Origin: an uncultured virus (IMG/VR IMGVR_UViG_3300034062_003972) | Taxonomy: Duplodnaviria; Heunggongvirae; Uroviricota; Caudoviricetes | IMG/VR virus record: IMGVR_UViG_3300034062_003972 | Length of the DNA stretch: 64,000 nt | Reading direction: 5' to 3' (one strand) | Part shown: one piece after another, positions 1-64,000 of the stretch | How the letters are laid out: the number at the start of each line of letters is the position of its first letter | How positions within the stretch are numbered: position 1 is the first letter of the stretch | The notes under the pieces: model-generated | What the model saw: only the letters and a program-made list of their open reading frames with translations | The model's database searches: none | What the model was told of the DNA's origin: nothing | Translations under genes and position numbers: made by a program

Positions 1-220
1 AGCCGAGCGGCCCGCCTGGGGCGCCGATGGTGTCGCACCTCCCGAGGTGCCGGCCCGCCGTCCAGATCGAGCCGAGCGGCCCGCCTGGGGCGCCGATGGT
101 GTCGCACCTCCCGAGGTGCCGGCCCGCCGTCCAGATCGAGCCGAGCGGCCCGCCTGGGGCGCCGATGGTGTCGCACCTCCCGAGGTGCCGGCCCGCTGTC
201 CAGATCGAGCCGAGCGGCCC
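1..220. repeat. 69-bp tandem repeat, 3 full copies plus a partial; may extend left of the window
   Basis: Unit AGCCGAGCGGCCCGCC...TCCAGATCG starts at 1, 70, 139, 208; one C>T change in copy 3; internal inverted repeat GCACCTC-CC-GAGGTGC. Confidence 0.95.
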
Positions 221-224
221 CGGC

Positions 225-369
225 CGTGGCAACCCGCGCCCCTGGATCGTGGAAACCAGCACCCCCGGATCGTGGAAACCCGAGCCGCCCCCGTGCGCGG
301 CAACCCCGGCCCGTGGAAACCAGCGGCAGCGGCGAGCCCCCGTGCGCGGCAACCCCGACCGCGGCAACC
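225..369 (+). repeat. Seven direct copies of CGYGGMAACC
   Basis: Copies start at 225, 248, 271, 296, 312, 345, 360. Confidence 0.9.
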
Positions 370-14698: not shown

Positions 14699-15541
14699 CT
14701 ATTGCCAGATGGAAATGTAGCGGCACCCAGGATTCAGATAGAGTTGATAGCCAGCGTCGGCCATCTTCTTGTGCAGAAAGACGTGCTCGCAGTCGCCGCC
14801 CTCGTAGGGACGCACGCCGGCCGCGAGAAAAGCCTCGGTCTTGTAGACGCACAGGCCGCCGAAGGCCGAGTTCATCGGAATCGGCGGCGAGCCGACGGGT
14901 GGCAGGAGTCCGGAGGCCCAGCCGAAGCCGATCTCTTTGCGACGGTCCCGCCACCAATTGAGCCTCATGGCCCAGGCATCGTAGTGGGCGACGCCGCTTT
15001 CATCTCTGTAAAGGCTGTAGGAAGCCATCGCGCCTGGAGACTTGACGGCCGAGCGGGCCGACATCGCCCCCAACTGGCAGATCGAATGAAAAATGCCATC
15101 CGGACTGAACCCGTGCTGCGGGTCGACGTCGAGCACGATCGTCCAGGTCGCGCCGGCCGCGTGCTCCCGAACCCAGTCGTGGCAAGCGTTGCGGCAATAT
15201 GCCAGCCGCTCCGTCCGCTCCGGCTCAAAGCCCCTGGAGTCCAGGCCGCCAAGAGTCTCGTGCCGCACCTGAATCCAGCCATGACGTTCGGCGGCCCTGT
15301 CCAGATAGTCGTTCGTGCCGTCCTCAGAGTCGTTCTCGAACACGAACCATCGCAGGCTGCGAAAGCCGCGCCGGGCCTCGGCGAGCAGGCCGGCGGTGTT
15401 GTTGATGAGCGGCATCGCATTCCTGGCAATCGACACCACGACGACGTCCAGTTCCGAAGCCACCCGCCGGCCGACGGCCACGTCGCGGGCGTAGTCGTCC
15501 GCGTACTCTGCATCCACAGGCCAGACTGTTTCAGGTCGCAT
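14699..15541 (-). CDS. GT-A glycosyltransferase, CAP59/GT69-like
   Basis: FENDSEDGT, RLAYCRN, LDVD, YDAWA, SAFGGLCVY, DCEHV. Confidence 0.8.
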   Translation of the reverse strand: MRPETVWPVDAEYADDYARDVAVGRRVASELDVVVVSIARNAMPLINNTAGLLAEARRGFRSLRWFVFENDSEDGTNDYLDRAAERHGWIQVRHETLGGLDSRGFEPERTERLAYCRNACHDWVREHAAGATWTIVLDVDPQHGFSPDGIFHSICQLGAMSARSAVKSPGAMASYSLYRDESGVAHYDAWAMRLNWWRDRRKEIGFGWASGLLPPVGSPPIPMNSAFGGLCVYKTEAFLAAGVRPYEGGDCEHVFLHKKMADAGYQLYLNPGCRYISIWQ

Positions 15542-16172
15542 GGGCGGCGAACTCCCGGCAGGCTGCCTCGCGGTAGACGTACTGCGTGACGTGGACGAAG
15601 TGGGCGTTGGCGTCGCGCCTGGCGTCCTTGGGGTGGTGGTTCCACCTGGCGGGCAGGAACTCCGTCCGGTCGAAGAGGATCGTCGGCTCGCCACGCGACG
15701 CGATCGGCGCGCCTGACGCCAGCCTGTAGCCCATCTTGTCCAGAACTGCCGCCTGCTCCCACCACCAGTGATGCAGAAACCGGCTGCGATCCATCCAGAT
15801 TTGTTCGAGCGTCGAGAGCATTTCCTTGGTCACGACCCACACGCCGCAGTTCGGCACCAGGCCGCTCTCCGTCTCGTGCTCGACCAAGCCTTGCCACTTC
15901 GAGGCGTCGAAGTCGTCCAGAATGTTCACGTCCGAGCGGAACACGACCACGTCGGCGTCCAGCCACACGACAGTGTCGCGATGGCGGCTCTTCAAGGCCG
16001 AGATGATCCTCGGCACTTTCACCCACGACGGCGGCGCGTCGTCGGCGTGCAGGTTCACGCACTTGTAGTCCATGCCGTGCTTCTGCGCGTACCGCTCCAT
16101 GAGCGGCAGCGTGTGCCTAGCAATCCCGGCGAACTCCGGCCCGCACCATCCGGTAAGAAGGAGCGTGCTCAT
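15531..16172 (-). CDS. Glycosyltransferase, GT34 (MNN10/GMA12)-like
   Basis: YAQKHG, WVKVP, WLDAD, NCGVW, WEQAA. Confidence 0.8.
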   Translation of the reverse strand: MSTLLLTGWCGPEFAGIARHTLPLMERYAQKHGMDYKCVNLHADDAPPSWVKVPRIISALKSRHRDTVVWLDADVVVFRSDVNILDDFDASKWQGLVEHETESGLVPNCGVWVVTKEMLSTLEQIWMDRSRFLHHWWWEQAAVLDKMGYRLASGAPIASRGEPTILFDRTEFLPARWNHHPKDARRDANAHFVHVTQYVYREAACREFAAHAT

Positions 16173-16783
16173 TGGCCGCCCAGCGTTAGCAGTTCCTGCC
16201 GAGCAACGGCTGCGTCGCTTTCTCCTCGGCACGCAACGAGCAGGCCGCGGTGTGTTGAAGCACCGTGCCTGCGGCGGCAGTCGACGGCGCAGTGCCACCC
16301 GCCGGCCTGCAACTGCTCCCAGAGCCACCGCGCACCGTCGCACTTACTGAAGCCGGCCGCCTCCGCCGTCACGTCATGCGCGACAATGCACCTGGGGTGC
16401 AGCGCCAAGACAATCGGCAACTCATGCGTTACCGCTTGCATCTCGTGGTCGCCGTCCACGACGACCATGACGTCGCCTTCTGCCGAAATAGCCGGCAGTG
16501 CGACGACGCTAGGGCTCTGATGCACCGAAAAGCCTGGCCTGGCGTCGGCGATGGCCCTGACGCTGTCTTGGATCGAGATGTCAATCAGATGCGCCTTCTT
16601 GATTGCTCCGCAATCGTATGCCGCAGCGATTGCCGTCGTCGAAACGCCGGCGAAGCACCCTATCTCCACCACAGTCTGCGGACGAAGTTTCTGCATCACA
16701 GCCAGCATCCACTCGACGTGGACTCTATCCATGCTCATTGCGTCGCCGACGCGCTGCTCAAGTGATCCAAAGTCAATAGTCAC
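16169..16783 (-). CDS. Class I SAM-dependent methyltransferase (glycan O-methyltransferase-like)
   Basis: VVEIGCFAGVST, VDGDH, AHD. Confidence 0.8.
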   Translation of the reverse strand: MTIDFGSLEQRVGDAMSMDRVHVEWMLAVMQKLRPQTVVEIGCFAGVSTTAIAAAYDCGAIKKAHLIDISIQDSVRAIADARPGFSVHQSPSVVALPAISAEGDVMVVVDGDHEMQAVTHELPIVLALHPRCIVAHDVTAEAAGFSKCDGARWLWEQLQAGGWHCAVDCRRRHGASTHRGLLVACRGESDAAVARQELLTLGGQ

Positions 16784-17073
16784 GCCACGCTCTCCAGAAA
16801 CTCCTTGACGTCGCCGACCGACCGGCACACGGTGGACGGGCAGCCGTGGCCGATCAATTCGCGCAGACGATGCTGTTGGAGCCTGGTCGGTTCCTCGCCT
16901 GCCCGCTTGAACTCGATCCAGTACGCGCGGCCGTCCTTGATGCACAGGACGTCGGGCAGGCCAGCCAGCGAGAACTGGCTGCCGTGCATCTTGATCGCGA
17001 AAAACCCCATGCCCCGCGCGACTGCCATTCCGTTGGCGACGATTGTTTTTTCGAGCGGTGCCTTGCGGGCCAC
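16780..17073 (-). CDS. VRR-NUC nuclease
   Basis: GLPD...WIEFK...PTRLQ. Confidence 0.85.
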   Translation of the reverse strand: MARKAPLEKTIVANGMAVARGMGFFAIKMHGSQFSLAGLPDVLCIKDGRAYWIEFKRAGEEPTRLQQHRLRELIGHGCPSTVCRSVGDVKEFLESVA

Positions 17074-17074
17074 G

Positions 17075-17437
17075 TCAGAACTCGTGCTCCGTAGCCTGGA
17101 ACGCGACGGCACGCCCGTCATAGGCGTAGGCCGGCATCGACCACTGGCGACGCCTGGGGCCGACGATGCGCTTCTCTCGCTCCTCGTCCGACCAGCCGGC
17201 ACGCACCTGGGCGCACCGATCGGCGATCTCCTCTGGGCTCGGAGCCGACAGCCGCTCCATCTCGGCTCGCGGACGCGGCGGCAGCCGCAGGCGGCGGCTC
17301 ACGCACCATATCTGGCTCTTCGTCAGGCCGAGCCTGGAGGCGATCTCCAGCGTCCCCAGTTCCGGGTTGGCCCAGAGCGCGAACACCTTCCTGGCGTCTA
17401 CCACGATGCAGCGACCGTCCCTAGTGCGCAGTTCCAT
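17075..17437 (-). CDS. Putative HTH protein with PSPEEI...W...ER motif
   Basis: TLEIASRLGLTKSQI HTH plus shared motif. Confidence 0.7.
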   Translation of the reverse strand: MELRTRDGRCIVVDARKVFALWANPELGTLEIASRLGLTKSQIWCVSRRLRLPPRPRAEMERLSAPSPEEIADRCAQVRAGWSDEEREKRIVGPRRRQWSMPAYAYDGRAVAFQATEHEF

Positions 17438-17438
17438 C

Positions 17439-17747
17439 CTAGACTTCCTCTTTCACGAACACCCCCTCCGGCGTCAGGTGACCACGGCGGTCCTTGATCG
17501 TCAGATAGGCAGATTCCAGGCAGCGGGCCAGCGACAGCCCCTGTAGACGCGAGTAGATAATCAGCGTCACCAGGACGTCGCCGACGCCGTCCACGATCTC
17601 GTTGTCGTGCCGCTTGAGCGTCGCGTCGGCCAGTTCGCCCAGTTCGCTCACGGTCTTGAGCAACTGGGCCTGCGCGGTCGAGTGCTCAAGGATGCGGCGA
17701 TCCGCAGCCCACTGCTCGACTTTGGCAACGAGGTCTTCGAGCGTCAT
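17439..17747 (-). CDS. MazG-like NTP pyrophosphohydrolase
   Basis: KTVSELGELA...DGVGDVLVT...AY..IKDRRG. Confidence 0.85.
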   Translation of the reverse strand: MTLEDLVAKVEQWAADRRILEHSTAQAQLLKTVSELGELADATLKRHDNEIVDGVGDVLVTLIIYSRLQGLSLARCLESAYLTIKDRRGHLTPEGVFVKEEV

Positions 17748-17890
17748 TTCTTCTTCCCGGCTCGCTTCTTGGCCTTCTCGGCGATGTCCATCGCGATGGC
17801 GACGGCTTGGTTGTGCGGGCGGCCAGCCTTCACCTCGGCCTTGATGTTCGCGGCGATCGTCTTCTGCGAGTAGCCCTTCTTGAGCGGCAT
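17744..17890 (-). CDS. Small basic phage protein (MPLKKG...QAVAIA)
   Basis: 48-aa ORF read by hand; ATGA overlap with the mazG-like gene. Confidence 0.75.
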   Translation of the reverse strand: MPLKKGYSQKTIAANIKAEVKAGRPHNQAVAIAMDIAEKAKKRAGKKK

Positions 17891-17895
17891 GGCAA

Positions 17896-18537
17896 CTACC
17901 TCCTGACGTAAGACAAAGCATCACGAAGCCACCGCACCCGCTCATCGGCCGGGAACACTCCGCAGGCGTGATAGACAAAGTCGCCCGGCTGCCAGTGACC
18001 GCCGATCTCGTCGCGGGCGTTGGCGGGACGGTTCCACACGCAACTGTTGAAAGCGCGGAGCGGAGCAACCGTAATCAAGTCCTCCGGCACAGTTTTGATG
18101 TTCTGAAGCCACGTCTGCCAGATGCACGGCAGGCCGCTCCACTCGTCCTCGCGGGTGGCGATGGCGTGAAGCAGGCCGCGCGATGGGGTCGTGTTCTTCC
18201 AGATCATGCTGCCGCAGTTGATTCCGTTCCACTCCACAATTCCCTCTTCGCACACAGTGACGTGTGGCCCGAGAGACGGCACGTCCTCGATCTGTTGCGC
18301 CATGTTCGTAATGATGGCGTCGCAGTCGAGCGTCCAGAGGAGGTCGAACCTGTCGAGGTAGTCGCAGAGGTAGTGCGTGTTGCGCGCCGCCTCTTCGTAT
18401 GGCTGGTTGTCGCAGACAAGCGAATAGCCGTGCCGCAGGCAATATTCCAGTTTGTTCGGAGTGGTCAGCGCAGACAGTTCGGCGACGTTGGCCGAGACGC
18501 TGGTCACGACGGCAACTTTGACTTGCGTGCTGCTCAT
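17896..18537 (-). CDS. Second GT34-like glycosyltransferase
   Basis: NKLEYCLRHGY, WTLDCD, INCGSM, WQPGDFVYH. Confidence 0.8.
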   Translation of the reverse strand: MSSTQVKVAVVTSVSANVAELSALTTPNKLEYCLRHGYSLVCDNQPYEEAARNTHYLCDYLDRFDLLWTLDCDAIITNMAQQIEDVPSLGPHVTVCEEGIVEWNGINCGSMIWKNTTPSRGLLHAIATREDEWSGLPCIWQTWLQNIKTVPEDLITVAPLRAFNSCVWNRPANARDEIGGHWQPGDFVYHACGVFPADERVRWLRDALSYVRR

Positions 18538-18559
18538 GCTGTGCCGCTCCTGGCCCGCA

Positions 18560-18760
18560 TCACTTGACTCCGATGCGGACGGGGGACTGAAGCAGCATCG
18601 CCAGGAGCGCGAGGCCGACGCCATTCGAGAACGTCGCCTCCTTGAGGCCGAACAGTTCCGGCATCGCGAGGTTCCAGGCCAGCATCGCGCCGAGGCCAGC
18701 CAGGGCCAGGAGGGCTGGAAAGAGGCAGGCCCAGAGGAAGATGGTGACGGTTTCCTTCAT
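18560..18760 (-). CDS. Small two-TM membrane protein
   Basis: 66 aa, hydrophobic. Confidence 0.7.
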   Translation of the reverse strand: MKETVTIFLWACLFPALLALAGLGAMLAWNLAMPELFGLKEATFSNGVGLALLAMLLQSPVRIGVK

Positions 18761-24903: not shown

Positions 24904-25139
24904 TTGGCCTCCAGCCAATCGGTGAACCCCTCGATGAGGTCATCGTAGGTTCCGTCCATGTGAACCTCGATCGCCTCGGCGATGCGGGCGAACTGCACGC
25001 CAAGTTGGTACATGGACGACTGATCCTCGTCGCGGTCGACGCGGAACGTTACCGAATGCTTCGTCGAGGCGACGTGCATGAAGGCTTCGCCGTAGACGTC
25101 GACTTCGGCCTCAACGCGGCCGCGGATTTCGTCGCTCAT
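24900..25139 (-). CDS. Acidic hypothetical protein
   Basis: AAGGAGG RBS; 79 aa. Confidence 0.7.
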   Translation of the reverse strand: MSDEIRGRVEAEVDVYGEAFMHVASTKHSVTFRVDRDEDQSSMYQLGVQFARIAEAIEVHMDGTYDDLIEGFTDWLEAK

Positions 25140-25309
25140 TGCTTTGCCACCTCCTTCGGCCTGTCGAGCAGTTCCCTCCGCAGAATCTGCACCTCTGGCG
25201 GAGCCTGGATCGCGAGGCGAACCTGACCGTCGACAATCCTCGTGACGAGGATTTCGATGTCCTTGCCGATCAAGAGGCGATCGCCGCGGCGGCGGGTGAC
25301 GACGAGCAT
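25136..25309 (-). CDS. csrA: Carbon storage regulator CsrA/RsmA
   Basis: MLVVTRRRGDRLLIG.DIEI.V...QVRLAIQAP.EV.ILRREL. Confidence 0.9.
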   Translation of the reverse strand: MLVVTRRRGDRLLIGKDIEILVTRIVDGQVRLAIQAPPEVQILRRELLDRPKEVAKQ

Positions 25310-25326: not shown

Positions 25327-25405
25327 AAGGCCGGCGGCTGGCCGATGAGTCAGGAAGTGGACGAACCATCGGCCAGCCATGTGCCGGCTTGTGTGTGCGA
25401 GTAGA

Positions 25406-32950: not shown

Positions 32951-32994
32951 GCCGACGCTCCTCCATGAGTCGGAGGAATGTATCGGCCGGTAGG

Positions 32995-34792: not shown

Positions 34793-34888
34793 CCCGTAGA
34801 CGTGCGGCGGGTCGTAGGGGCAGTTCTGGCACCCCAGCCCGCAGCACCGGCCCCTGGCCGCCAGAACCTTGGCCGGTATCGGCTTCAC
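34658..34888 (-). CDS. DUF5522-like small Cys protein
   Basis: [18 protein letters not shown] overlap with gmd. Confidence 0.65.
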
Positions 34889-35874
34889 TCCGACGCCGCG
34901 GAGGCCACGATCGCCTCACGCCTCGCCAGTTCGCAGTCATCGTCAGTCATCATTTCGACGAGGCCGTCGAACGTCGTGCCTGGCTCCCAGCCGAGCCGAT
35001 CGCGAGCCAGGGCCGCGTCGGCTTGGAGCACGTCCACCTCGGCCGGGCGGTAGTACCTCGGGTCGATCTCGACGTGGTCGCGGTAGTCAAACCCAGCGTG
35101 AGCGAACGCCGATTCGCAGAACTCCCGCACGGTATGCGTCTCGCCCGTGCCGATGACGTACTCTCTCGGAGTAGCCTCTTGCAGCATCAGCCACATCGCC
35201 TCGACGTAGTCGCCTGCGAAGCCCCAGTCCCGACGGGCATCGAGGTTGCCGAGGTAGAGTTTCTGCTGTAGCCCATGCTTGATTCGCCCGACGGCTCGAC
35301 TGATCTTGCGTGTCACAAAAGTTTCGCCGCGTCGCGGGCTCTCGTGGTTGAACAGGATGCCGCAGGATGCGTGCAGGCCGTAAGACTCGCGGTAGTTGAT
35401 CGTGATCGAGTGCGCGAAAAGTTTCGCGCAGGCATACGGCGACCTCGGCTGAAACGGTGTGGCCTCTCGCTGCGGGGCCGGCGAGTTGCCGAACAGTTCG
35501 CTGCTCGACGCCTGGTAGAACCTCGCCTGCGGCGCGTGGTCGCGGATCGCCTCAAGCATCCGCAGGCAGCCGATGCCGGTGGCGTCGGCTGTGTAGGTCG
35601 GCTGGTCGAACGACACGCGGACGTGGCTCTGGGCCGCCAGGTTGTAGACCTCGTCTGGCTGTACCTCGCGGACAATGCGGGCCATCGCGCCGCCGTCGCA
35701 CACGTCGCCGTGGTGGAGGTGGAGCCGCTCGAACTCGTGATCGATGCGGCCCGTGTTAAACGTGCTGGCCCGGCGCACGACGCCATGCACCTCGTAGCCC
35801 TTCGCGAGCAGGAACTCGGCGAGGTAGGAGCCGTCCTGGCCCGTGATGCCCGTGATCAGAGCGCGACGCTGCAT
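34885..35874 (-). CDS. gmd: GDP-mannose 4,6-dehydratase
   Basis: [45 protein letters not shown]. Confidence 0.97.
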
Positions 35875-36779
35875 TGATTTCTCCACCATTCCACTGTTTC
35901 TCGGATGCCGTCCTCCAGGCTCACTCGCGGCGTCCAGCCGAGCAGGCTCTCGGCCCGCGACGCATCAACGGCTCGGCGAGGCTGCCCGTCGGGCTTCGTG
36001 CCGTCCCACTCGATGCGGCCCTCGAACCCGCAAGCGTCCGAGACCATGCCGGCAAGGCTCTGCATCGTGATCTCGCCGCCGCCGCCCAGGTTGATCGGCT
36101 CGGCGTTGCTGAGTGCCTCGCCGGCCGCGACGATGCCGGCCGCAGCGTCATCGACGTGGAGGAACTCACGCGACGCGGAGCCAGTTCCCCAGAGCGTCAC
36201 CGAACCCTCGGCCTCGCAGAATTTGCGAATCATCGCCGGTATGACGTGGCTCGACGCCGGGTCGAAGTTGTCGCCGGGGCCATAGAGATTCGTCGGGATC
36301 ACGACCGTGCCAGCCATGCCGTACTGCCGGTGATACTGCCGCAGCATCTCGTAGACGGCTCGCTTCGCTACGCCATAGCCGGCGTTCGTCTCTTCGGGGT
36401 ATCCGCTCCAGAGGTCGCCCTCGGCGAACGGCGGCCGGCAGAACTTCGGGTAGGAGCAGACCGTGCCGACGACGACGACCTTCTCGACGCCGTGGGTGCG
36501 GGCCTGCTCAATGACGTTGAGCCCCATCGCCAGGTTCGCGTAGGTGAATCGCCCTGGCTGGGCCATGTTCGCACCGATGCCGCCAACTTCGGCCGCGAGG
36601 TGATAGACCATGCGGGGCTTCGCCGCCGCGAAATACTCTGCCGTCGCGACGGCGTCTGTCAGTTCGCAGCCCCATCGTCGTGGTCGCAGCACGTCGTGGC
36701 CCGCCGCTTCGAGGAGCCGGCATACACGACGGCCGAGGAATCCGTTGCCGCCGGTGACGAGGGTTGGCCTGACACTCAC
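35856..36779 (-). CDS. fcl: GDP-L-fucose synthase
   Basis: [33 protein letters not shown]...[13 protein letters not shown]. Confidence 0.95.
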
Positions 36780-37174
36780 AGCGTCGCCGCCTCGCGGAAC
36801 GCCGCGTCGATGGCGGAAGCATTCATCCCGAGCGAAGCCCCGAACTGGCCGATCAGCGGGTGATCCCGACGCACCTCCAGGCCGTACTCCCAGGCTACGC
36901 GGGCCTCGTCCCTCGCCGGCTGCGGCAGGGCGTCGATCATGGCATCGACCTGGGCGAGCGAGACGCCGGCACGGATCAGCCAGACCCTGAACTGGTAGGG
37001 ACTCACGCTCGCCGGCACCGGCTCGACAGCCTCGGCCATCTGCCATCCGGCCGGCAGCGAGTCCTCGTGAACAGCCACGCAGCCTTCTGGCGGCATCCAG
37101 CCCGTTGGCACGTCCGAGCGAACAAACGTAACGACGCGGCCGTCCGACTCCCGAACGATTGCTAGTCTGCTCAT
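36776..37174 (-). CDS. Tail fibre-associated or assembly protein
   Basis: Follows fibre gene; V.P.Q.R..L...W...RDHP...ID..F..A. Confidence 0.6.
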   Translation of the reverse strand: MSRLAIVRESDGRVVTFVRSDVPTGWMPPEGCVAVHEDSLPAGWQMAEAVEPVPASVSPYQFRVWLIRAGVSLAQVDAMIDALPQPARDEARVAWEYGLEVRRDHPLIGQFGASLGMNASAIDAAFREAATL

Positions 37175-58410: not shown

Positions 58411-59769
58411 TCAAGAAGCCGCCGTCCGCAGAGCCACCACAGGGCCGACCTCGCTGGTCGAGCCAAGGCTGTGATGGTTCACGTCGAACCGCATCGTCCC
58501 CTGGAGGAGGAGTTGGTCCGTCGTGGCGTAGACCTGATCGTAGAGCCGGACGCTGAAGTCCCGACGCCGGGCGTAGATGCTGGACAGCGAGAGGTTGCCG
58601 AACAGCACCTTGACCTTCGACACGTCCGAGCCGAGGGTGCTGTTGAGCACATGCACGAGCCGCACGGGGTATCCGAGCCAGGTGTCGGTCACGCCGGTGC
58701 CGAGGTCCGCTCCGGTGTTGCCGCCGGCGGCGTACTTCAGGCGGGAGATGCTCGCCGCGTAGCCGGCCGGGCTCACATACCAGGCCGCACCATTGCGGGC
58801 GTAGATCGGCAACTTGCCCATCGCACCGAGGAAGTCCTCGATGTCGAGCGTCTCGAAGGAGACGTTGCCAGAGGCAGCCGTCACCACCGACGCCGAGTGA
58901 TCGCCGTTGACGATCTTCGACGCGATGCCGCGGATGCCGCCGAAGTCACCCTGCGTCCCGTCGCCGAGCCAGCCACAGAGGTCGATCTTGTAGGCCAGGC
59001 TGGTCGCGAACTCCGTCGCGACAGCGTCGGCCAGACCGACCACGCCCGCCGAATCCTCGACCACCTCGGTCGACATCCGGCAGCCAACCGCCAACTTCTT
59101 GGCGACGAGCGACACGTTGCCGTAGGTCGGCTCGCTCTCGGTGACGGCCGAGCCCTCGCCCACGAAGTAGGCCGTGGTGCCGGAGAGCCGCTTCGGGATC
59201 ACCATCGTGTCCCGCGTCATCGTGACGTTCTCGCAGGCCGGGGGCAGGGTGCCGAAGGTTTCGACCAGCCGGATCACCCGGTTGGCGAACTCCTCGGGGA
59301 CCAGCGCGCCGCCGGTGCTGTTGGCGTTCTCGCCCAGAGCCCGGTTCTCGACGCCGTGATCCTTGCACCACCGCAGGTCGTCGGCATTCTTGAAGATGTG
59401 CGCCCGCAGCCAGCGGCCGCAGCGATAGGCACTCTCCACCGAGTCGGGGCCATCGTTGAACGCGGCCAACTGGGTGTGATGGGGGAGGATCGACCGAATC
59501 TCGGTCTTCTTCGCGTCCTCGGTGGCCTTCTCGACCACCGGAGCCGGAGCCGGCTGGGCCTTCTCGACGACGCTGCGGAGTTCGGCCTCCTTGGCAGCGA
59601 TCCGCTCCTCGAACTCCAGCGAGGTCTTCAGGTCGTCGGCCTGGTTGCCGAGCGAGATGAGTTCCTTGGTCTGATCCGCACTCCGCTCCTCGATCGAGCC
59701 GAGTTCGGTCATCCGCGCGGCAACGGCCGCGGCACGCTCCTGAAGACGCTTGAGATTCGACGACGCCAT
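58411..59769 (-). CDS. HK97-family major capsid protein
   Basis: Coiled-coil delta domain, GGALVP, FVGEG, GDG, LGYPV, FGNL. Confidence 0.92.
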   Translation of the reverse strand: MASSNLKRLQERAAAVAARMTELGSIEERSADQTKELISLGNQADDLKTSLEFEERIAAKEAELRSVVEKAQPAPAPVVEKATEDAKKTEIRSILPHHTQLAAFNDGPDSVESAYRCGRWLRAHIFKNADDLRWCKDHGVENRALGENANSTGGALVPEEFANRVIRLVETFGTLPPACENVTMTRDTMVIPKRLSGTTAYFVGEGSAVTESEPTYGNVSLVAKKLAVGCRMSTEVVEDSAGVVGLADAVATEFATSLAYKIDLCGWLGDGTQGDFGGIRGIASKIVNGDHSASVVTAASGNVSFETLDIEDFLGAMGKLPIYARNGAAWYVSPAGYAASISRLKYAAGGNTGADLGTGVTDTWLGYPVRLVHVLNSTLGSDVSKVKVLFGNLSLSSIYARRRDFSVRLYDQVYATTDQLLLQGTMRFDVNHHSLGSTSEVGPVVALRTAAS

Positions 59770-59926
59770 TTTGGCCTGACTCCTGGTTGAGCCGGCCAAA
59801 CGCAAAAGCGGCGGCCGGCGGGTGATTCCCGCAAGCGCGCCGCGTCGTGAATCCTCACGCCACTCGCACTGCTCACCACGGCATCCGCCGCGGTGCGTAG
59901 TCCATACTTGTAGCCTATGCTGTCGG
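59770..59926 (-). promoter_or_regulatory. Structured capsid leader with multiple GGA-loop hairpins
   Basis: Stems at 59874-59895 and 59846-59859, both with GGAT loops. Confidence 0.55.
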
Positions 59927-61825
59927 CTACATACTCTGCAAACGAGTCCGGAGCACGGCTGCCTTCAACTCCGCCGCCTTGACCGCAGCCGCGGCAATGG
60001 CGACGTCTTCAGCCGACGGCGCGGGGACCGAATTGCTCTCGGCCACGACGACCGGCTCCGCAGCGGGCGGAGCGTCCGTTTCGGCGACCGCCGTATCCCT
60101 CGACTCCTGCTCACTCATCGTGACCTCCGGAATGACGTGCATCTGGCACAGCGCTTCGGGCGAAATGCTTCCTGCAACGATTTCGCACGCCCCGCCACCT
60201 TCATAGAAGATGCAGTTCGCGCACCTCATTCCTTGAGCGATCCACGGGCTTTCGGCCATGTAGTGGACATCAGTTGGCAAAAACTGCCCATAGATGTCGA
60301 CCGCGTCCTCAAGCACCCTGGCAATGACTTTCTTGTGCGGCGAGAGGCCGCCCTCGGGCTCCGCGCGGTTCTCTTGCGCGTCCATCTGGGCCACCTTGGC
60401 CGCAGCCCACCGCTGGCCGGCGTTTCCAGCCCACAGGAGCCACGCCACGAACCCCGGCTTCTCATCGCCCGGCGTGTCCCAACCCGGCGACTTGCTCGCC
60501 TTCTCGTGCCTGGCGAACCAGGCATTCATCTCGCGGACGTGATCCTCGGTGAGCGTCTCGCGGGCGGCGATCTTGTTCGCTCTGGCAACCGTCTCTGGCT
60601 TGAGGCCGTCGCCTGACTTGCCCTCCTCGTGGAGTTTGAGGCCGCGCCGGGCCGCCGAGGCCATGCCAGCGGTGGGGCGGAGGTTGACGTCGGCACGCTG
60701 CTCGTCGGCCTGGCCTGCCGGCTCGTCGACCTTGGTCAGCGACGACATCTTCTTCGCCACCATGTGGTCTTCCGGCTCGCCGTCGTCATACGGCGTCAGC
60801 ACCACCAGGGGGTCTTCCTCGGTGGCGGCCATGCCTTGCACCGAGCCGTTCGGCATGACGTGCTCGACGCGGCCGACGCCGTCACCCCAGGAGGCGTAGT
60901 CGCCTTCCTTGAGAGAGCCGGGGGCTTCCCTGGCGACGGTGTCGCTGGTTGTTACGGAGCGTACCTCCGCTGGCTCTGCCGCGGAGGCACGCCGCTTCAA
61001 AACCCACTTCGCCCCAGCCTCTCCTCCAGCCAGTTTCCACTCGACCCAGGCCGGCGAGCCGACCCAATCCTCGGCACGGGCCTCCAAGCACCGATCATGG
61101 ACGTTCGCCAGGTACTCGACCTCCTCGACGGAGACGATTTCACGGGCCACGAGGTGCTCGGCGATGCCCACCAGCACTTGATCGACGTCGTCGCGGCCCC
61201 GGCAGGCGTTCAAGCCTTTGCGGGCAGCGTTCGCCATCGTCTGATTCGGCCGGTAGGCGTCGCCGAGGGCCATTTCGATGGCTCGGCGGCTGACGATCAC
61301 GCTCGAAGCCTCGAAGGCGGGCCGCACGACCGGGCCGACGTCCTCCAACTTGCCGATGGAGCGGACTTCGCGCCTCCGCAGGCCGCTTTTCGTCATGCTC
61401 CACGAATCGCCGCGCTGATGTCCATCATTTTTGATAGCGAACGCAAACGAACTGCCGGTCACATAGCCCCCGGCGACCAGTTCGACGACCTCTTCGGCCG
61501 TCTGGGTCTTCGGCAGCGGCCCCATTTCGTAGCGCAGGCCGTAGGAATCGGGCCGCAACTTGAGCGTGTTGTTCGCAGACCGGGCCAGCAACTTGTCTTT
61601 GGAGTGGTTGTAGACGCCGATGACGTCCGGATTCGTCGCCAGCACTTCGTCGAAGGCATTCGGGTGAATGACCTCCACGAAACCGCCCAGATTTCTCGAC
61701 TCCGAGTTGAAAACGGCGGCGTAGCCGACGATCACTGGCCTCTTTTCGCCGTTGCCGACGTCGCGGTACTCGATCGACGTGTCCGAAACGGTCAGACGAC
61801 GCTCAATTTCAGTGTCAGCCATCAC
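59927..61825 (-). CDS. HK97-type prohead protease with ~440-aa multidomain extension
   Basis: GYAAVFN, F.E.I...AF, NH, GLRY, SSFAF, DVGPV..PAF. Confidence 0.88.
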   Translation of the reverse strand: MMADTEIERRLTVSDTSIEYRDVGNGEKRPVIVGYAAVFNSESRNLGGFVEVIHPNAFDEVLATNPDVIGVYNHSKDKLLARSANNTLKLRPDSYGLRYEMGPLPKTQTAEEVVELVAGGYVTGSSFAFAIKNDGHQRGDSWSMTKSGLRRREVRSIGKLEDVGPVVRPAFEASSVIVSRRAIEMALGDAYRPNQTMANAARKGLNACRGRDDVDQVLVGIAEHLVAREIVSVEEVEYLANVHDRCLEARAEDWVGSPAWVEWKLAGGEAGAKWVLKRRASAAEPAEVRSVTTSDTVAREAPGSLKEGDYASWGDGVGRVEHVMPNGSVQGMAATEEDPLVVLTPYDDGEPEDHMVAKKMSSLTKVDEPAGQADEQRADVNLRPTAGMASAARRGLKLHEEGKSGDGLKPETVARANKIAARETLTEDHVREMNAWFARHEKASKSPGWDTPGDEKPGFVAWLLWAGNAGQRWAAAKVAQMDAQENRAEPEGGLSPHKKVIARVLEDAVDIYGQFLPTDVHYMAESPWIAQGMRCANCIFYEGGGACEIVAGSISPEALCQMHVIPEVTMSEQESRDTAVAETDAPPAAEPVVVAESNSVPAPSAEDVAIAAAAVKAAELKAAVLRTRLQSM

Positions 61826-63476
61826 TCACCTCGTCGAAATGCCGCTCGAACCAGCCCTCGGTGACCGATTCGTACTTGTTTCCGCTCCGATGACAGCCGA
61901 GAAGCAGGTCTTTGGAGCGATTCACCCACGAAGCCACGAACGAATCAACGTCTCGACCAGCCGCTGATGCTGCGTCGCGGAGTTCAATCCGCATCTTTTC
62001 CTCGACTTGGCCGAACCATTGCGTGATTTTCTCCGGCTTCGACCGCCGTTCGAGGATTCCGTCGGCTTCGATGTCGGCGATTCGCCGGAGCGTCGTGCGG
62101 AACAGGGCTTCGGCAGCGTCGAGCGAGCGGGATTCTTGCTGCGCGGCCGGCTCTGTGGCCGCCTGCTGCGGCCTGTTTTGCTCTGGCGCGGACGCAGGAT
62201 CGGCGTTTTCCTGGCCGGACGTTTGGCCGGTTTGCGCAGCCGTCGGATTCTCCGGCGTGAAGGCTCCGAGCAACTGCATATTGACCTGGATGAACCGCTT
62301 CTTGCCCTGGCCGTCGGGCAGCGGGTTGTAGCCGATCGCCGCGCGGACTTCGTCGACATCCAGCACTCCCATGTTCGCCATCTCGCGGAGGAACTGCGAG
62401 CGAGCGGCGTAGTCGCCAGCCATCAGCGCGTTCGTGTCGAACTGCGTGAAGTAGTTCTTGTCGTCCACCACGAGGTCGCGACGGGCCGCCATCTCCCACC
62501 GTCGGCACCACGGGATCAGCGAGAACGTCACGAAGTCGATCGCCGACTGCTCGACGGTGCTGAAGCGGACGTTCGTCAGGTCGCCGATCAGGTGAGGCGG
62601 AACCCGATATGTCCTCGCGATGGATTCCAGAGCCCACCTCTGGCTCTCAACAAGAGCAGCATCGCGATTGTTTACCGGCTCTGCCCGCTTCTTGAATCCG
62701 AAAGGCATGACCACCGTTTTGAAGTGGTTGCGGGGGCCGGCGTGGGCCGAATCCCACTGCTCGCGGAAGCGACGAAGCGTCTCCGGCTTCTGCGGCTGGT
62801 CGGTTTCGATGTACGTCCCGGTCGAGCAGCCGTTGCCAAAGAATGCCGAGGAGTGCAGTTCGCACGCCCGCGCCAAGGCGATGGCGTCCTTCGACAGGCT
62901 GGTTGGCACGAAACCCGTCACGCCGTCGTTCGAGAGCCACCGGAGGTGGAAAATCTCGTCCTGCCGGTACTCCTCTGGCTCCGGGGCCGGGTCGGCCAGC
63001 GTCGCGGGCCTGCGGTAGTAGTAGCGAAGTTTGCCGTTCTCCAGCCGCTTGGCCTCCATCCGCGAGGGGTGGAGCGGGATCAGTTCGCTCACCGCGCCGT
63101 GCTCGATCGAGCCCTTGATATGGGCGTAGGCGTTGCCCCACAAGAGAATCCACGACTGCATGAGTTCGCGGAACTCGAAACTCGTCATCCACGAGTTTGG
63201 CTGGTAGTGCAGGACTTCGTGGAGGTGCTTGTCGTCGGCGACCTCCTTGCCGCCGCCGGGGAGTTTGCGGCAGTAGTTCCAGGGGAGGCTGGCAATACTC
63301 TCTGCCAGTACCCTTACGCAGGCCAGGACGCCGGCACTCTCCAGCGCCAACTCGGGCGAGACGTCCACGCCGGCCGTCGTTGACCGGCCCGCGATGATCT
63401 CCTCGAAGACCCTGGAGAGGCTCTGGCTGCGGAGTTCCATGACGCCGGCGTAGGACTCTTCTTCTGCTGTCGGCAT
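61815..63476 (-). CDS. HK97-family portal protein
   Basis: ACVR..AESIA, PN.WMT, GNAY, EIFHLR, VPPHLIG. Confidence 0.93.
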   Translation of the reverse strand: MPTAEEESYAGVMELRSQSLSRVFEEIIAGRSTTAGVDVSPELALESAGVLACVRVLAESIASLPWNYCRKLPGGGKEVADDKHLHEVLHYQPNSWMTSFEFRELMQSWILLWGNAYAHIKGSIEHGAVSELIPLHPSRMEAKRLENGKLRYYYRRPATLADPAPEPEEYRQDEIFHLRWLSNDGVTGFVPTSLSKDAIALARACELHSSAFFGNGCSTGTYIETDQPQKPETLRRFREQWDSAHAGPRNHFKTVVMPFGFKKRAEPVNNRDAALVESQRWALESIARTYRVPPHLIGDLTNVRFSTVEQSAIDFVTFSLIPWCRRWEMAARRDLVVDDKNYFTQFDTNALMAGDYAARSQFLREMANMGVLDVDEVRAAIGYNPLPDGQGKKRFIQVNMQLLGAFTPENPTAAQTGQTSGQENADPASAPEQNRPQQAATEPAAQQESRSLDAAEALFRTTLRRIADIEADGILERRSKPEKITQWFGQVEEKMRIELRDAASAAGRDVDSFVASWVNRSKDLLLGCHRSGNKYESVTEGWFERHFDEVSDG

Positions 63477-63477
63477 C

Positions 63478-64000
63478 CTAGAACACCATGAGTTCGGGTT
63501 CTTCGTCGGGGCCGCGGACCTCGCCGCTACACAGGCCGAGGGCCATGATGAGAGAGACGGCGGCGTCGATGCGGGCCGTGGATTTGGAGTGGCTTTTGGT
63601 GGGCTTGTAGTTCCCGGCGTCGTCCGTCCGCACCTGAAGGTTCGACATCTGTAACGCCAAGGCCGGGTTGCCGCCGTGCCGTAATTTCTGGCCTAAAACG
63701 AGAGTTTCGAGCAGTTTCGTGGGCGGGCTCATCGAGGCGTAGCCCTGCCCGAACGGCTTGACATCAATCCCTTCGGCGACCAGTTGCGTCGTCAGGTGGG
63801 TTGCGTTCCATCGGTCGATGGCAACAGCCCGAACCGCATTCTTCTCCGCAAAGGAGAGAATGTAGTTCCTGACAGCGTCGTAATCCGTCACATCGCCTTC
63901 TGTAATTGTAACCCATCCGTCCTTCGCCCATTGGCGATACGGTGCTTCGTCCCTGTCCGCGCCGGCCTCGGGGACGAAGAGGTGGGCGAAGACGTCGAAC
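63478..64000 (-). CDS. Terminase large subunit, C-terminal part (truncated by window)
   Basis: DRWNA, FGQG..SMS, H.GNP, RIDAAV...MA. Confidence 0.9.
   Translation of the reverse strand, partial: FDVFAHLFVPEAGADRDEAPYRQWAKDGWVTITEGDVTDYDAVRNYILSFAEKNAVRAVAIDRWNATHLTTQLVAEGIDVKPFGQGYASMSPPTKLLETLVLGQKLRHGGNPALALQMSNLQVRTDDAGNYKPTKSHSKSTARIDAAVSLIMALGLCSGEVRGPDEEPELMVF

Follow-up and report, generated by a model that had tools for sequence, protein, structure and literature searches.

The 64,000-nt stretch of DNA analysed here (the window) comes from an uncultured virus of the class Caudoviricetes (IMG/VR record IMGVR_UViG_3300034062_003972) and carries on its minus strand a head module that profile searches of the window identify as the standard HK97 type. 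The prohead protease and major capsid genes of this module are separated by a 157-nt non-coding gap (59926-59770, minus strand), in which the 5' leader of the capsid mRNA would lie. Here, we describe this leader as a real, conserved, structured element of a family of lake-water phages, and we propose, with rather more confidence than doubt, that it is a cis target through which the CsrA of the phage and/or its host sets capsid translation or mRNA stability. The landmarks of the locus are the following:

59927-61825, minus strand: prohead protease open reading frame (ORF), 632 aa, with an S78 domain at residues 19-184 (PF04586, E = 7.6e-32)
59941-59936, minus strand: -35-like hexamer TTGCAG (TTGCAC in most relatives), within the last protease codons
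59929-59927, minus strand: stop codon of the protease ORF
59917-59910, minus strand: -10-like motif TAGGCTAC (TAnnnT followed by AC), 18 nt after the -35-like hexamer
59905-59770, minus strand: predicted 5' leader of the capsid mRNA, about 136 nt, its 5' end placed from the -10-like motif
59769-59767, minus strand: capsid ATG
58411-59769, minus strand: major capsid gene, 452 aa (PF05065, E = 4.1e-26; phrog_10, E = 8.6e-44)

A capsid-protein scan of viral contigs gave 350 relatives, and the best 80 of these 350 (71-100% identity) were used. At least 260 nt of upstream sequence was available for 77 of the 80, and these loci, together with the window, yielded 51 distinct upstream sequences (49 distinct rows in the covariation count). 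In 65 of the 77 loci, 132-179 nt separate the end of the last long ORF from the capsid start; in 8, the distance is 376-544 nt and the element is kept too; the upstream ORF was not definable in the other 4. The element is also present in three matches from genome collections and in four more distant viral loci, whose capsids are 62-66% identical. The metagenome runs that contain the phage are from lake water, and the nearest related record, which has 29% of sampled words in common with the window, has an identical leader. None of 50,697 phage records gave a blastn match to the head-gene region. A covariance model built from 55 sequences has exactly one match in each of 10 related records, in every case at the capsid start; neither those records nor the window has a second copy (next best match in the window 17.5 bits, E = 0.1).

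An initial annotation of this stretch, made from the sequence alone, had claimed that the capsid leader is a structured RNA, and this is borne out. All the stems it listed are present on the minus strand where it placed them; the 176-nt leader stretch has a minimum free energy (MFE) of -85.8 kcal/mol (z = -3.64), a stability that none of 200 shuffles equals; and the fold is conserved across the 51 sequences, for which the RNAalifold consensus has four helices and compensatory changes at 15 of 31 pairs. This consensus leaves the Shine-Dalgarno (SD) sequence of the capsid gene free, and we call it the ON structure. Covariation, which the annotation had put forward as a check, is plain once the ON structure is extended to 34 pairs: 95.4% of cells pair, both sides change at 16 of the 34 pairs, and none of 500 shuffles matches it on any of five measures. 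Sliding the partners by 1-3 columns lowers pairing to 33-45%. The G.U pairs of the leader would be C.A on the opposite strand (for example in 41 of 49 rows at one P4 pair), so the structure is specific to the capsid-sense strand. Some blocks are conserved beyond the needs of pairing (AGCAGUGCGAGCG and GCGGCGCGCU). A scan of 59300-60400 on both strands against Rfam 15, a further check that the annotation had named, returned only a match of 15.3 bits (E = 6.5) on the opposite strand; Rfam thus has no family that matches the leader.

The 5' half of the leader is built of two hairpins that each hold a GGA in the loop, the second of them capping a longer helix:

59895-59874, minus strand: hairpin 1 (P1), CACCGCGGC-GGAT-GCCGTGGTG, a 9-bp stem with one G.U pair; GGA at 59886-59884
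59870-59834, minus strand: P2, AGUGCG/CGCGCU plus GUG/CGC, capped by hairpin 2, from the RNAalifold consensus
59859-59846, minus strand: hairpin 2, CGTGA-GGAT-TCACG; GGA at 59854-59852

All nine pairs of the hairpin 1 stem covary, with changes on both sides, and the pair that closes its loop alternates among C-G, A-U, U-G, and G-U, while the GGA is kept in 49 of 51 rows. In hairpin 2, three of the five pairs are compensatory and the inner GA/UC pairs and the loop are invariant; it contains the invariant GAGGAUUC, and its top, GAGGAYUC, is found in 47 of 51 rows. The lower stem of P2 has compensatory changes at 2 of 9 pairs and one-sided changes at 3. The two GGA motifs are 31 or 32 nt apart in all 42 rows that have both by column, a spacing inside the 10-63 nt over which a CsrA dimer can bridge two sites, and two identical loops at a fixed spacing are a good fit for a homodimer. 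The loop flanks read CGGAUG in 10, UGGAUG in 7, and AGGAUU in 8 of the 51 rows, and the upstream ACA is not conserved; the CsrA SELEX consensus is RUACARGGAUGU (PMC4347634). In the distant leaders (L101, L102, L104, and L091), stems and flanks differ but both loops still carry GGA: A-GGAU-U and C-GGAU-G are exchanged between the hairpins in L101, and L102 has UGGACU.

The initial annotation had described a series of GGA loops in a CsrB-like pattern, the first of them on a 3-bp stem (GTA-TGGAC-TAC, 59907-59897, minus strand). A GGA occurs at that place in the window's own row only of the 51, which is why we treat it as chance. Hairpins 1 and 2 are what stands of the series, and "serial, CsrB-like" overstates a leader with only two conserved loops plus the GGA of its SD. 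The annotation was right that the GGA loops lie away from the SD: across the 46 of 51 rows that allow both to be located, the distance is about 70-82 nt.

The 3' half is composed of helices that compete for the same strands:

59832-59818, minus strand: P3, GCGGG-AAUCA-CCCGC
59817-59793, minus strand: P4, CGGCCG (59817-59812) with UGGCCG (59798-59793), leaving the SD free
59843-59838 with 59813-59808, minus strand: AltT, GCGGCG with CGCCGC, which encloses P3 and excludes P2 and P4
59799-59771, minus strand: P5, UUGGCCGGCUC / GAGUC-A-GGCCAA, which sequesters the SD and excludes P4
59784-59780, minus strand: Shine-Dalgarno sequence AGGAG

In the ON structure, P2, P3, and P4 form and the SD is free. 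In the MFE structure (OFF), the 3' strand of P2 is instead used in AltT around P3, whereby P4 loses its 5' strand, and the freed 3' strand of P4 pairs downstream in P5, burying the GAG of AGGAG. The P3 stem is invariant (four of five pairs never vary, and 99.6% of cells pair), and the loops of P3 and P4 vary freely in length and sequence. P4 pairs in 100% of cells, with compensatory changes at 2 of 6 pairs (GC to AU in 6 rows). AltT forms in the MFE and centroid structures of the window, where the RNAalifold consensus differs, and pairs in 98.7% of cells; the case for this predicted helix is one of conservation and energy. The stem GCCGGCCG/TGGCCGGC of the initial annotation is likewise present on the minus strand, between P3 and the SD.

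P5 is the local MFE hairpin in the 32 distinct 3' segments and pairs at least three of four SD bases in 29 of them. Its compensatory pair types, at four positions, are U-A/C-G/U-G, C-G/U-A, U-A/C-G, and C-G/U-A/U-G. A base common to P4 and P5 changes from C to U in 8 rows; its P4 partner is then A, and AGCC stands downstream for P5. On a capsid protein tree of 40 of the 55 sequences (one per near-identical group), this replacement of GGCC by GGCU with both partners changed maps to 4 changes, of which at least 3 are required by branches with good support. P4 and P5 are thus mutually exclusive, each has covariation of its own, and P5 occludes the SD, as is expected of an RNA switch. Each sequence was also folded with the strand common to P4 and P5 constrained to pair on either its upstream or its downstream side; in 45 of 51 rows, the SD-closed folds had the lower energy (mean 5.5 kcal/mol, range -3.0 to +14.1). 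The leader is therefore plausibly a two-state element whose equilibrium default hides the SD.

Long irregular helices such as P2 and AltT could also belong to a processing, stability, or attenuation element, that is, an RNase III/E site or a partial terminator setting the protease-to-capsid ratio. In the window, AltT is followed by UUUUGCGUUU, and a U-run follows P4 in the divergent L101. We give this account a slim chance: the alignment holds no conserved U-tract after AltT or P4 (the L014 group, for example, has AUCGUCGCGUAU after AltT), a scan for terminators at the leader was empty, a terminator ahead of the structural gene needed most would be counter-intuitive, and the conserved GGA loops would be left unexplained.

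What lies upstream of the leader resembles a promoter. The -35/-10-like motif is conserved both where it overlaps the protease coding sequence and in the 8 loci without an overlapping ORF, and the T, A, and sixth T of its -10-like part are invariant or at least 90% conserved. Allowing one mismatch, the window contains 48 copies of TAGGCTAC (5 of them exact) versus 13.0 +/- 3.6 expected, and the motif or its variants stand 25-90 nt before gene starts at 758, 10030, 20663, 25408, 31146, and 59917; it is probably the -10-type promoter element of this phage. A further occurrence is at 32991. Under the same assumption about the 5' end, the leader is 136-146 nt long across the 51 rows. The RNA evidence consists of contigs only, which show neither start nor strand: the metatranscriptome library X24 has 3 contigs, one of which (450 nt, about 95% identical, depth 4.8) spans 59453-59898 and ends there, a weak hint in that this end is near the predicted start. 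The lack of X24 cover on 59921-61900 was not counted as evidence, and the libraries X22 and X23 are probably DNA.

A promoter-like motif of its own would equally suit a separate small RNA gene between protease and capsid. We regard such a gene as very improbable, since the covarying P4 and P5 extend into the capsid SD, there is no terminator, and the element has one copy per genome, always at the capsid start. Because it reaches the capsid SD through covarying helices, the element is to be read as an mRNA leader.

The proposal that CsrA acts on this leader draws on a second locus, where the phage carries its own csrA gene:

25139-25309, minus strand: csrA, 57 aa from the ATG at 25309 (PF02599, E = 7.5e-18); a longer, 77-aa frame starts at 25369
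25326-25311, minus strand: hairpin ACCGAA-CGGA-UUCGGU, 1 nt before the csrA ATG

Residues 1-51 of the protein align gap-free with solved CsrA chains of E. coli and Pseudomonas (E = 1.9e-8), and CsrA is the only RNA-binding family with a known GGA preference among the 147 ORFs of the window. The gene adjoins those for a prim-pol and a UvrD-like helicase. Of 30 viral records related to the window, the 7 with a completeness of at least 84% all have csrA, and the 23 fragments of at most 73% completeness all lack it; the co-occurrence with csrA that the initial annotation had suggested looking for thus holds in 7 of 7 near-complete relatives, within one lineage. In a Chakrabartia metagenome-assembled genome (MAG; G034), the sole csrA shares its 50.8-kb contig with the leader. 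As the csrA proteins have diverged to 42-75% identity, leader and csrA have both been kept over considerable divergence. A search outward from the most distant capsid (L090) gave 4 loci only and no leader-less or csrA-less sister group, too few distant loci for a negative test of co-occurrence.

The csrA start is itself preceded by a GGA hairpin. A stem-A(N)GGA(G)-stem hairpin stands 1-4 nt before the csrA start in 9 of 9 homologues, with five covarying kinds of stem (CCGAA/UUCGG, GCUGA/UCAGC, UCCGA/UCGGA, GAGG/CCUC, and GGAA/UUCC), and hairpin 2 of the capsid leader (GUGA-GGAU-UCAC) closely resembles it. A GGA in a hairpin loop overlapping the SD is the canonical form of a high-affinity CsrA site (PMC4347634), which implies autoregulation; the csrA start hairpin is probably an autoregulatory CsrA site. 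The -10-like motif lies upstream of csrA in 6 of 8 relatives. In the window, the csrA promoter-like site is a perfect TTGACA, a 17-nt spacer, and then TAATCT at 25431-25401 on the minus strand, with TAATCTAC as the variant of the -10-like motif, and the csrA leader of about 90 nt includes a 12-bp hairpin.

How might CsrA act on the capsid leader? The capsid mRNA would arise both from its own promoter-like site and by read-through of the head operon. Hairpins 1 and 2 are most likely two docking sites for one CsrA homodimer, supplied by the phage and/or by host paralogues. Downstream, the 3' half would work as a chain of exclusive helices, P2 or AltT and then P4 or P5, in which the SD-closed state (AltT and P5) would be the thermodynamic default and the SD-open state would consist of P2, P3, and P4. 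Occupancy of the 5' hairpins would either bias the choice of helices or guard the 5' end from decay, and in both cases alter the amount of capsid. We lean weakly towards activation over repression, given a closed default state, two 5'-proximal sites, and a csrA gene placed among replication genes that we take, from their position, to be expressed early. CsrA binding to the leader, its effect on capsid output, the promoter, and the 5' end are all things that we infer.

A more ambitious form of this proposal, which we hold only tentatively and consider rather doubtful, is a self-contained Csr circuit that times phage morphogenesis. CsrA would be made early and would shut off its own synthesis at the GGA hairpin that holds its SD. 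Having built up, it would bind hairpins 1 and 2 of the capsid leader and shift the helices from the SD-closed to the SD-open arrangement. If true, the phage would have converted a global regulator of bacteria into a translational switch dedicated to the passage from early to late.

Several observations weigh against CsrA as the ligand of the leader. GGA is a motif of only 3 nt, and a GGAU loop is a tight tetraloop if its closing pair forms, tighter than the 5-6-nt loops of most well-studied CsrA sites. Six of the 55 leaders are without one GGA loop (hairpin 1 in L013 and L027; hairpin 2 in L038, L039, L044, and L045), and a reduced variant in the genome G064 has no GGA in hairpin 1. Co-occurrence of csrA and leader within a single lineage is not independent evidence. 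AltT has 0 compensatory changes (only GC to GU, 15 times, and UG to UA, 6 times). Since each predicted state retains both GGA hairpins, the models give no route from occupancy to the choice of state. A scan with the E. coli sigma-70 consensus found no promoter at the leader, and the promoter role and a 5' end near 59905 thus rest on conservation. Finally, the rest of the window shows no excess of candidate sites: hairpins with the SD in the loop occur at 9 of 51 gene starts versus 8.2 expected from shuffled flanks, and GGA-loop hairpins number 169 versus 162 +/- 13 in shuffles. At these chance levels, we claim no wider phage regulon. Hairpins of 5 bp with an A(N)GGAG loop do stand 0-4 nt before the starts of the prim-pol gene (29424-29409) and of three small or tail-region ORFs (18777-18762, 53787-53772, and 24918-24904), all on the minus strand; they look like CsrA sites but are no commoner than expected, may be chance themselves, and were not counted as evidence.

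A first rival is a structured leader that is independent of CsrA, with a translational switch driven by some other factor (folding during transcription, temperature, the ribosome, a small ligand, or a different phage protein) and with GGAU loops that make a tertiary contact or bind a different dimeric RNA-binding protein. The covarying competition of P4 and P5 needs no CsrA, both hairpins are there in both states, AGCAGUGCGAGCG and GCGGCGCGCU are conserved beyond pairing, and one GGA loop is dispensed with in those 6 of 55 leaders. We nevertheless think this account unlikely, if well worth keeping in view. The alignment shows no conserved complement of the loops (AUCC); identical loops at a fixed spacing suit a homodimer, for which CsrA is the sole GGA-preferring family in the window; and the leader matches neither an Rfam riboswitch nor any other family there. 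The sequence GAGGATTC occurs 5 times in the window versus 2.6 expected, which is not significant.

The annotation had offered as its alternative a CsrA sponge whose abundance rises with late transcription. Here, abundant late capsid mRNA would titrate CsrA through its two loops, taken to be of high affinity, and free repressed messages late in infection, with little effect on capsid itself. Sites 70-82 nt from the SD on what is probably the most abundant late message would suit such a decoy, as would a csrA gene that looks CsrA-repressed. CsrB and RsmZ, the known sponges, share with the leader the GGA in hairpin loops; they are, however, separate, terminated small RNAs with many sites, whereas the leader has two conserved sites, lacks a terminator, and runs into the capsid ORF through its SD. 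Moreover, the window holds no enriched set of candidate repressed targets, and the SD-closing relay would be left without a role. We therefore see no support for a CsrB-like sponge and assign the decoy a low probability. The other half of the annotation's idea, a multi-site CsrA target controlling capsid translation, gains strong if indirect support as a candidate: two conserved loops with covarying stems and a co-inherited csrA with a GGA hairpin speak for it, and its third site has gone.

A cis target of CsrA in the capsid leader can be set beside the modes of action described for bacteria. In repression, CsrA bridges to the SD or strengthens a hairpin that blocks it, as RsmA does on psl; it activates by protecting the flhDC 5' end from RNase E or by remodelling the moaA leader (PMC4347634). 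Like flhDC, moaA, and psl, the capsid leader has two sites near the 5' end of a long leader and far from the SD, and binding could open or stabilise its SD-sequestering helix; unlike them, it has three successive alternative helices, which are undescribed for those leaders, and it is known from sequence alone. A further CsrA-activated leader is that of ymdA. Repressed leaders with an upstream hairpin and an SD site are known for glgC, hcnA, and B. subtilis hag. The capsid leader resembles these in its GGA loops, in two sites within the reach of one dimer, and in the GGA of its SD, and it resembles hag further in belonging to a gene whose product is the major subunit of a self-assembling structure. 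It differs in that its sites are at least 70 nt from the SD, the SD is already in an RNA helix, the regulator is carried by a phage, and each loop is a GGAU tetraloop when its closing pair is made. Phages have other proteins that act on leader hairpins, such as Mu Com on mom, where it opens an SD-closing helix, T4 RegA, and the MS2 coat protein on its operator; each is likewise a phage RNA-binding protein on a leader hairpin, with different protein families and RNA motifs.

Phage csrA genes are themselves not new. They were counted in 30 of 2517 phage genomes, about 1% (PMC7366521), and a survey of GenBank and IMG/VR found many more in IMG/VR (PMC8450108); Bci is a CsrA/RsmA homologue of a P. 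aeruginosa prophage (PMC7546807). The effects proposed for them, in the accessible text of these papers, are on the host, namely on CRISPR-Cas, quorum sensing, and infectivity (PMC7366521; PMC8450108; PMC7546807), and the same text describes no cis target in phage structural genes, whereas the present locus has a candidate for such a target and a probable autoregulatory site. The literature searched, which includes few subscription journals, describes no CsrA site in the capsid leader of a phage. The proposal that we draw from the sequence, and would back by a small measure, is of a phage-encoded, phage-targeted CsrA-type leader coupled to a multi-helix SD switch. The targets of phage csrA have so far been guessed to be host genes, and this locus offers a testable cis target inside the phage. 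If it is confirmed, a phage would be scheduling capsid synthesis with a captured global regulator, and the leader would be both a new structured RNA family and a compact model of how distant binding is relayed via helices to a ribosome-binding site.

A second, unrelated group of phages shows a comparable linkage. By annotation, csrA lies directly upstream of the capsid gene in the Bcep22-like phages Bcep22, BcepIL02, BcepMigl, JC1, DC1, CSP3, Itty13, and UAM5, an adjacency described for CSP3 (PMC10269572). The gap of Bcep22 (L109 1566-1663) folds at z = -5.13, with a GGA-bearing CAGGAUGUGC arm that pairs the bases before the AUG, and across six phages the arms of this long helix covary, a CAGGA(G/U)GUG arm pairing with the pre-AUG bases. 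These phages and that of the window alike have csrA linked to capsid, a structured capsid leader, and GGA near the start; their sequences, capsid families, and architectures are unrelated, and csrA is adjacent to capsid in the former and about 34 kb away in the latter. Should the timing circuit hold, the Bcep22-like adjacency suggests that such a role may be a general reason for phages to carry csrA. The Bcep22-like gap also has a promoter-like TTGCAA-N17-TAGAAT sequence, and Ralstonia phage Eline keeps the leader with an HNH gene in the place of csrA.

The host is likely a csrA-rich planctomycete, an assignment that depends on binning. The element was found in 3 of 151 sampled Planctomycetaceae-family genomes (two MAG contigs and one reduced variant) and in one Chakrabartia MAG, and all MAG carriers are short or phage-like contigs. 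Each of the three Planctomycetaceae MAGs also carries 4-5 csrA matches, on contigs other than that of the element. The reduced leader lies before a capsid homologue in a Planctomycetaceae-family genome (L107 1440-1620, G064:C22); its hairpin 1 loop is GACA, it has a single AAGGAA site and no AGGAG SD, and a search of the G064 genome gave no portal match.

The remainder of the window, with a G+C content of 64.7%, is that of a phage genome, in which a Pfam scan of the 147 ORFs identified an integrase, a prim-pol, helicases, and tail genes. Upstream of the protease, the head module continues with two further genes:

61815-63476, minus strand: portal (PF04860, E = 2.5e-88)
63478-63891, minus strand: C-terminus of the terminase large subunit

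The protease ORF has a 450-aa tail, which matches phrog_2859 at residues 380-493 and has an Ala/Glu/Lys-rich end; the tail may be a fused scaffold. Sugar-modification genes are found at 14702-18624 and 34888-37046 on the minus strand (GDP-mannose 4,6-dehydratase, E = 6e-135, an NAD-dependent epimerase, and two glycosyltransferase-like ORFs). At the very start of the window (1-369), a 69-bp tandem repeat of 3.2 copies at 99% identity is followed by 23- and 49-bp repeats, and each 69-bp unit has a GCACC-TCGGGA-GGTGC hairpin on the minus strand.

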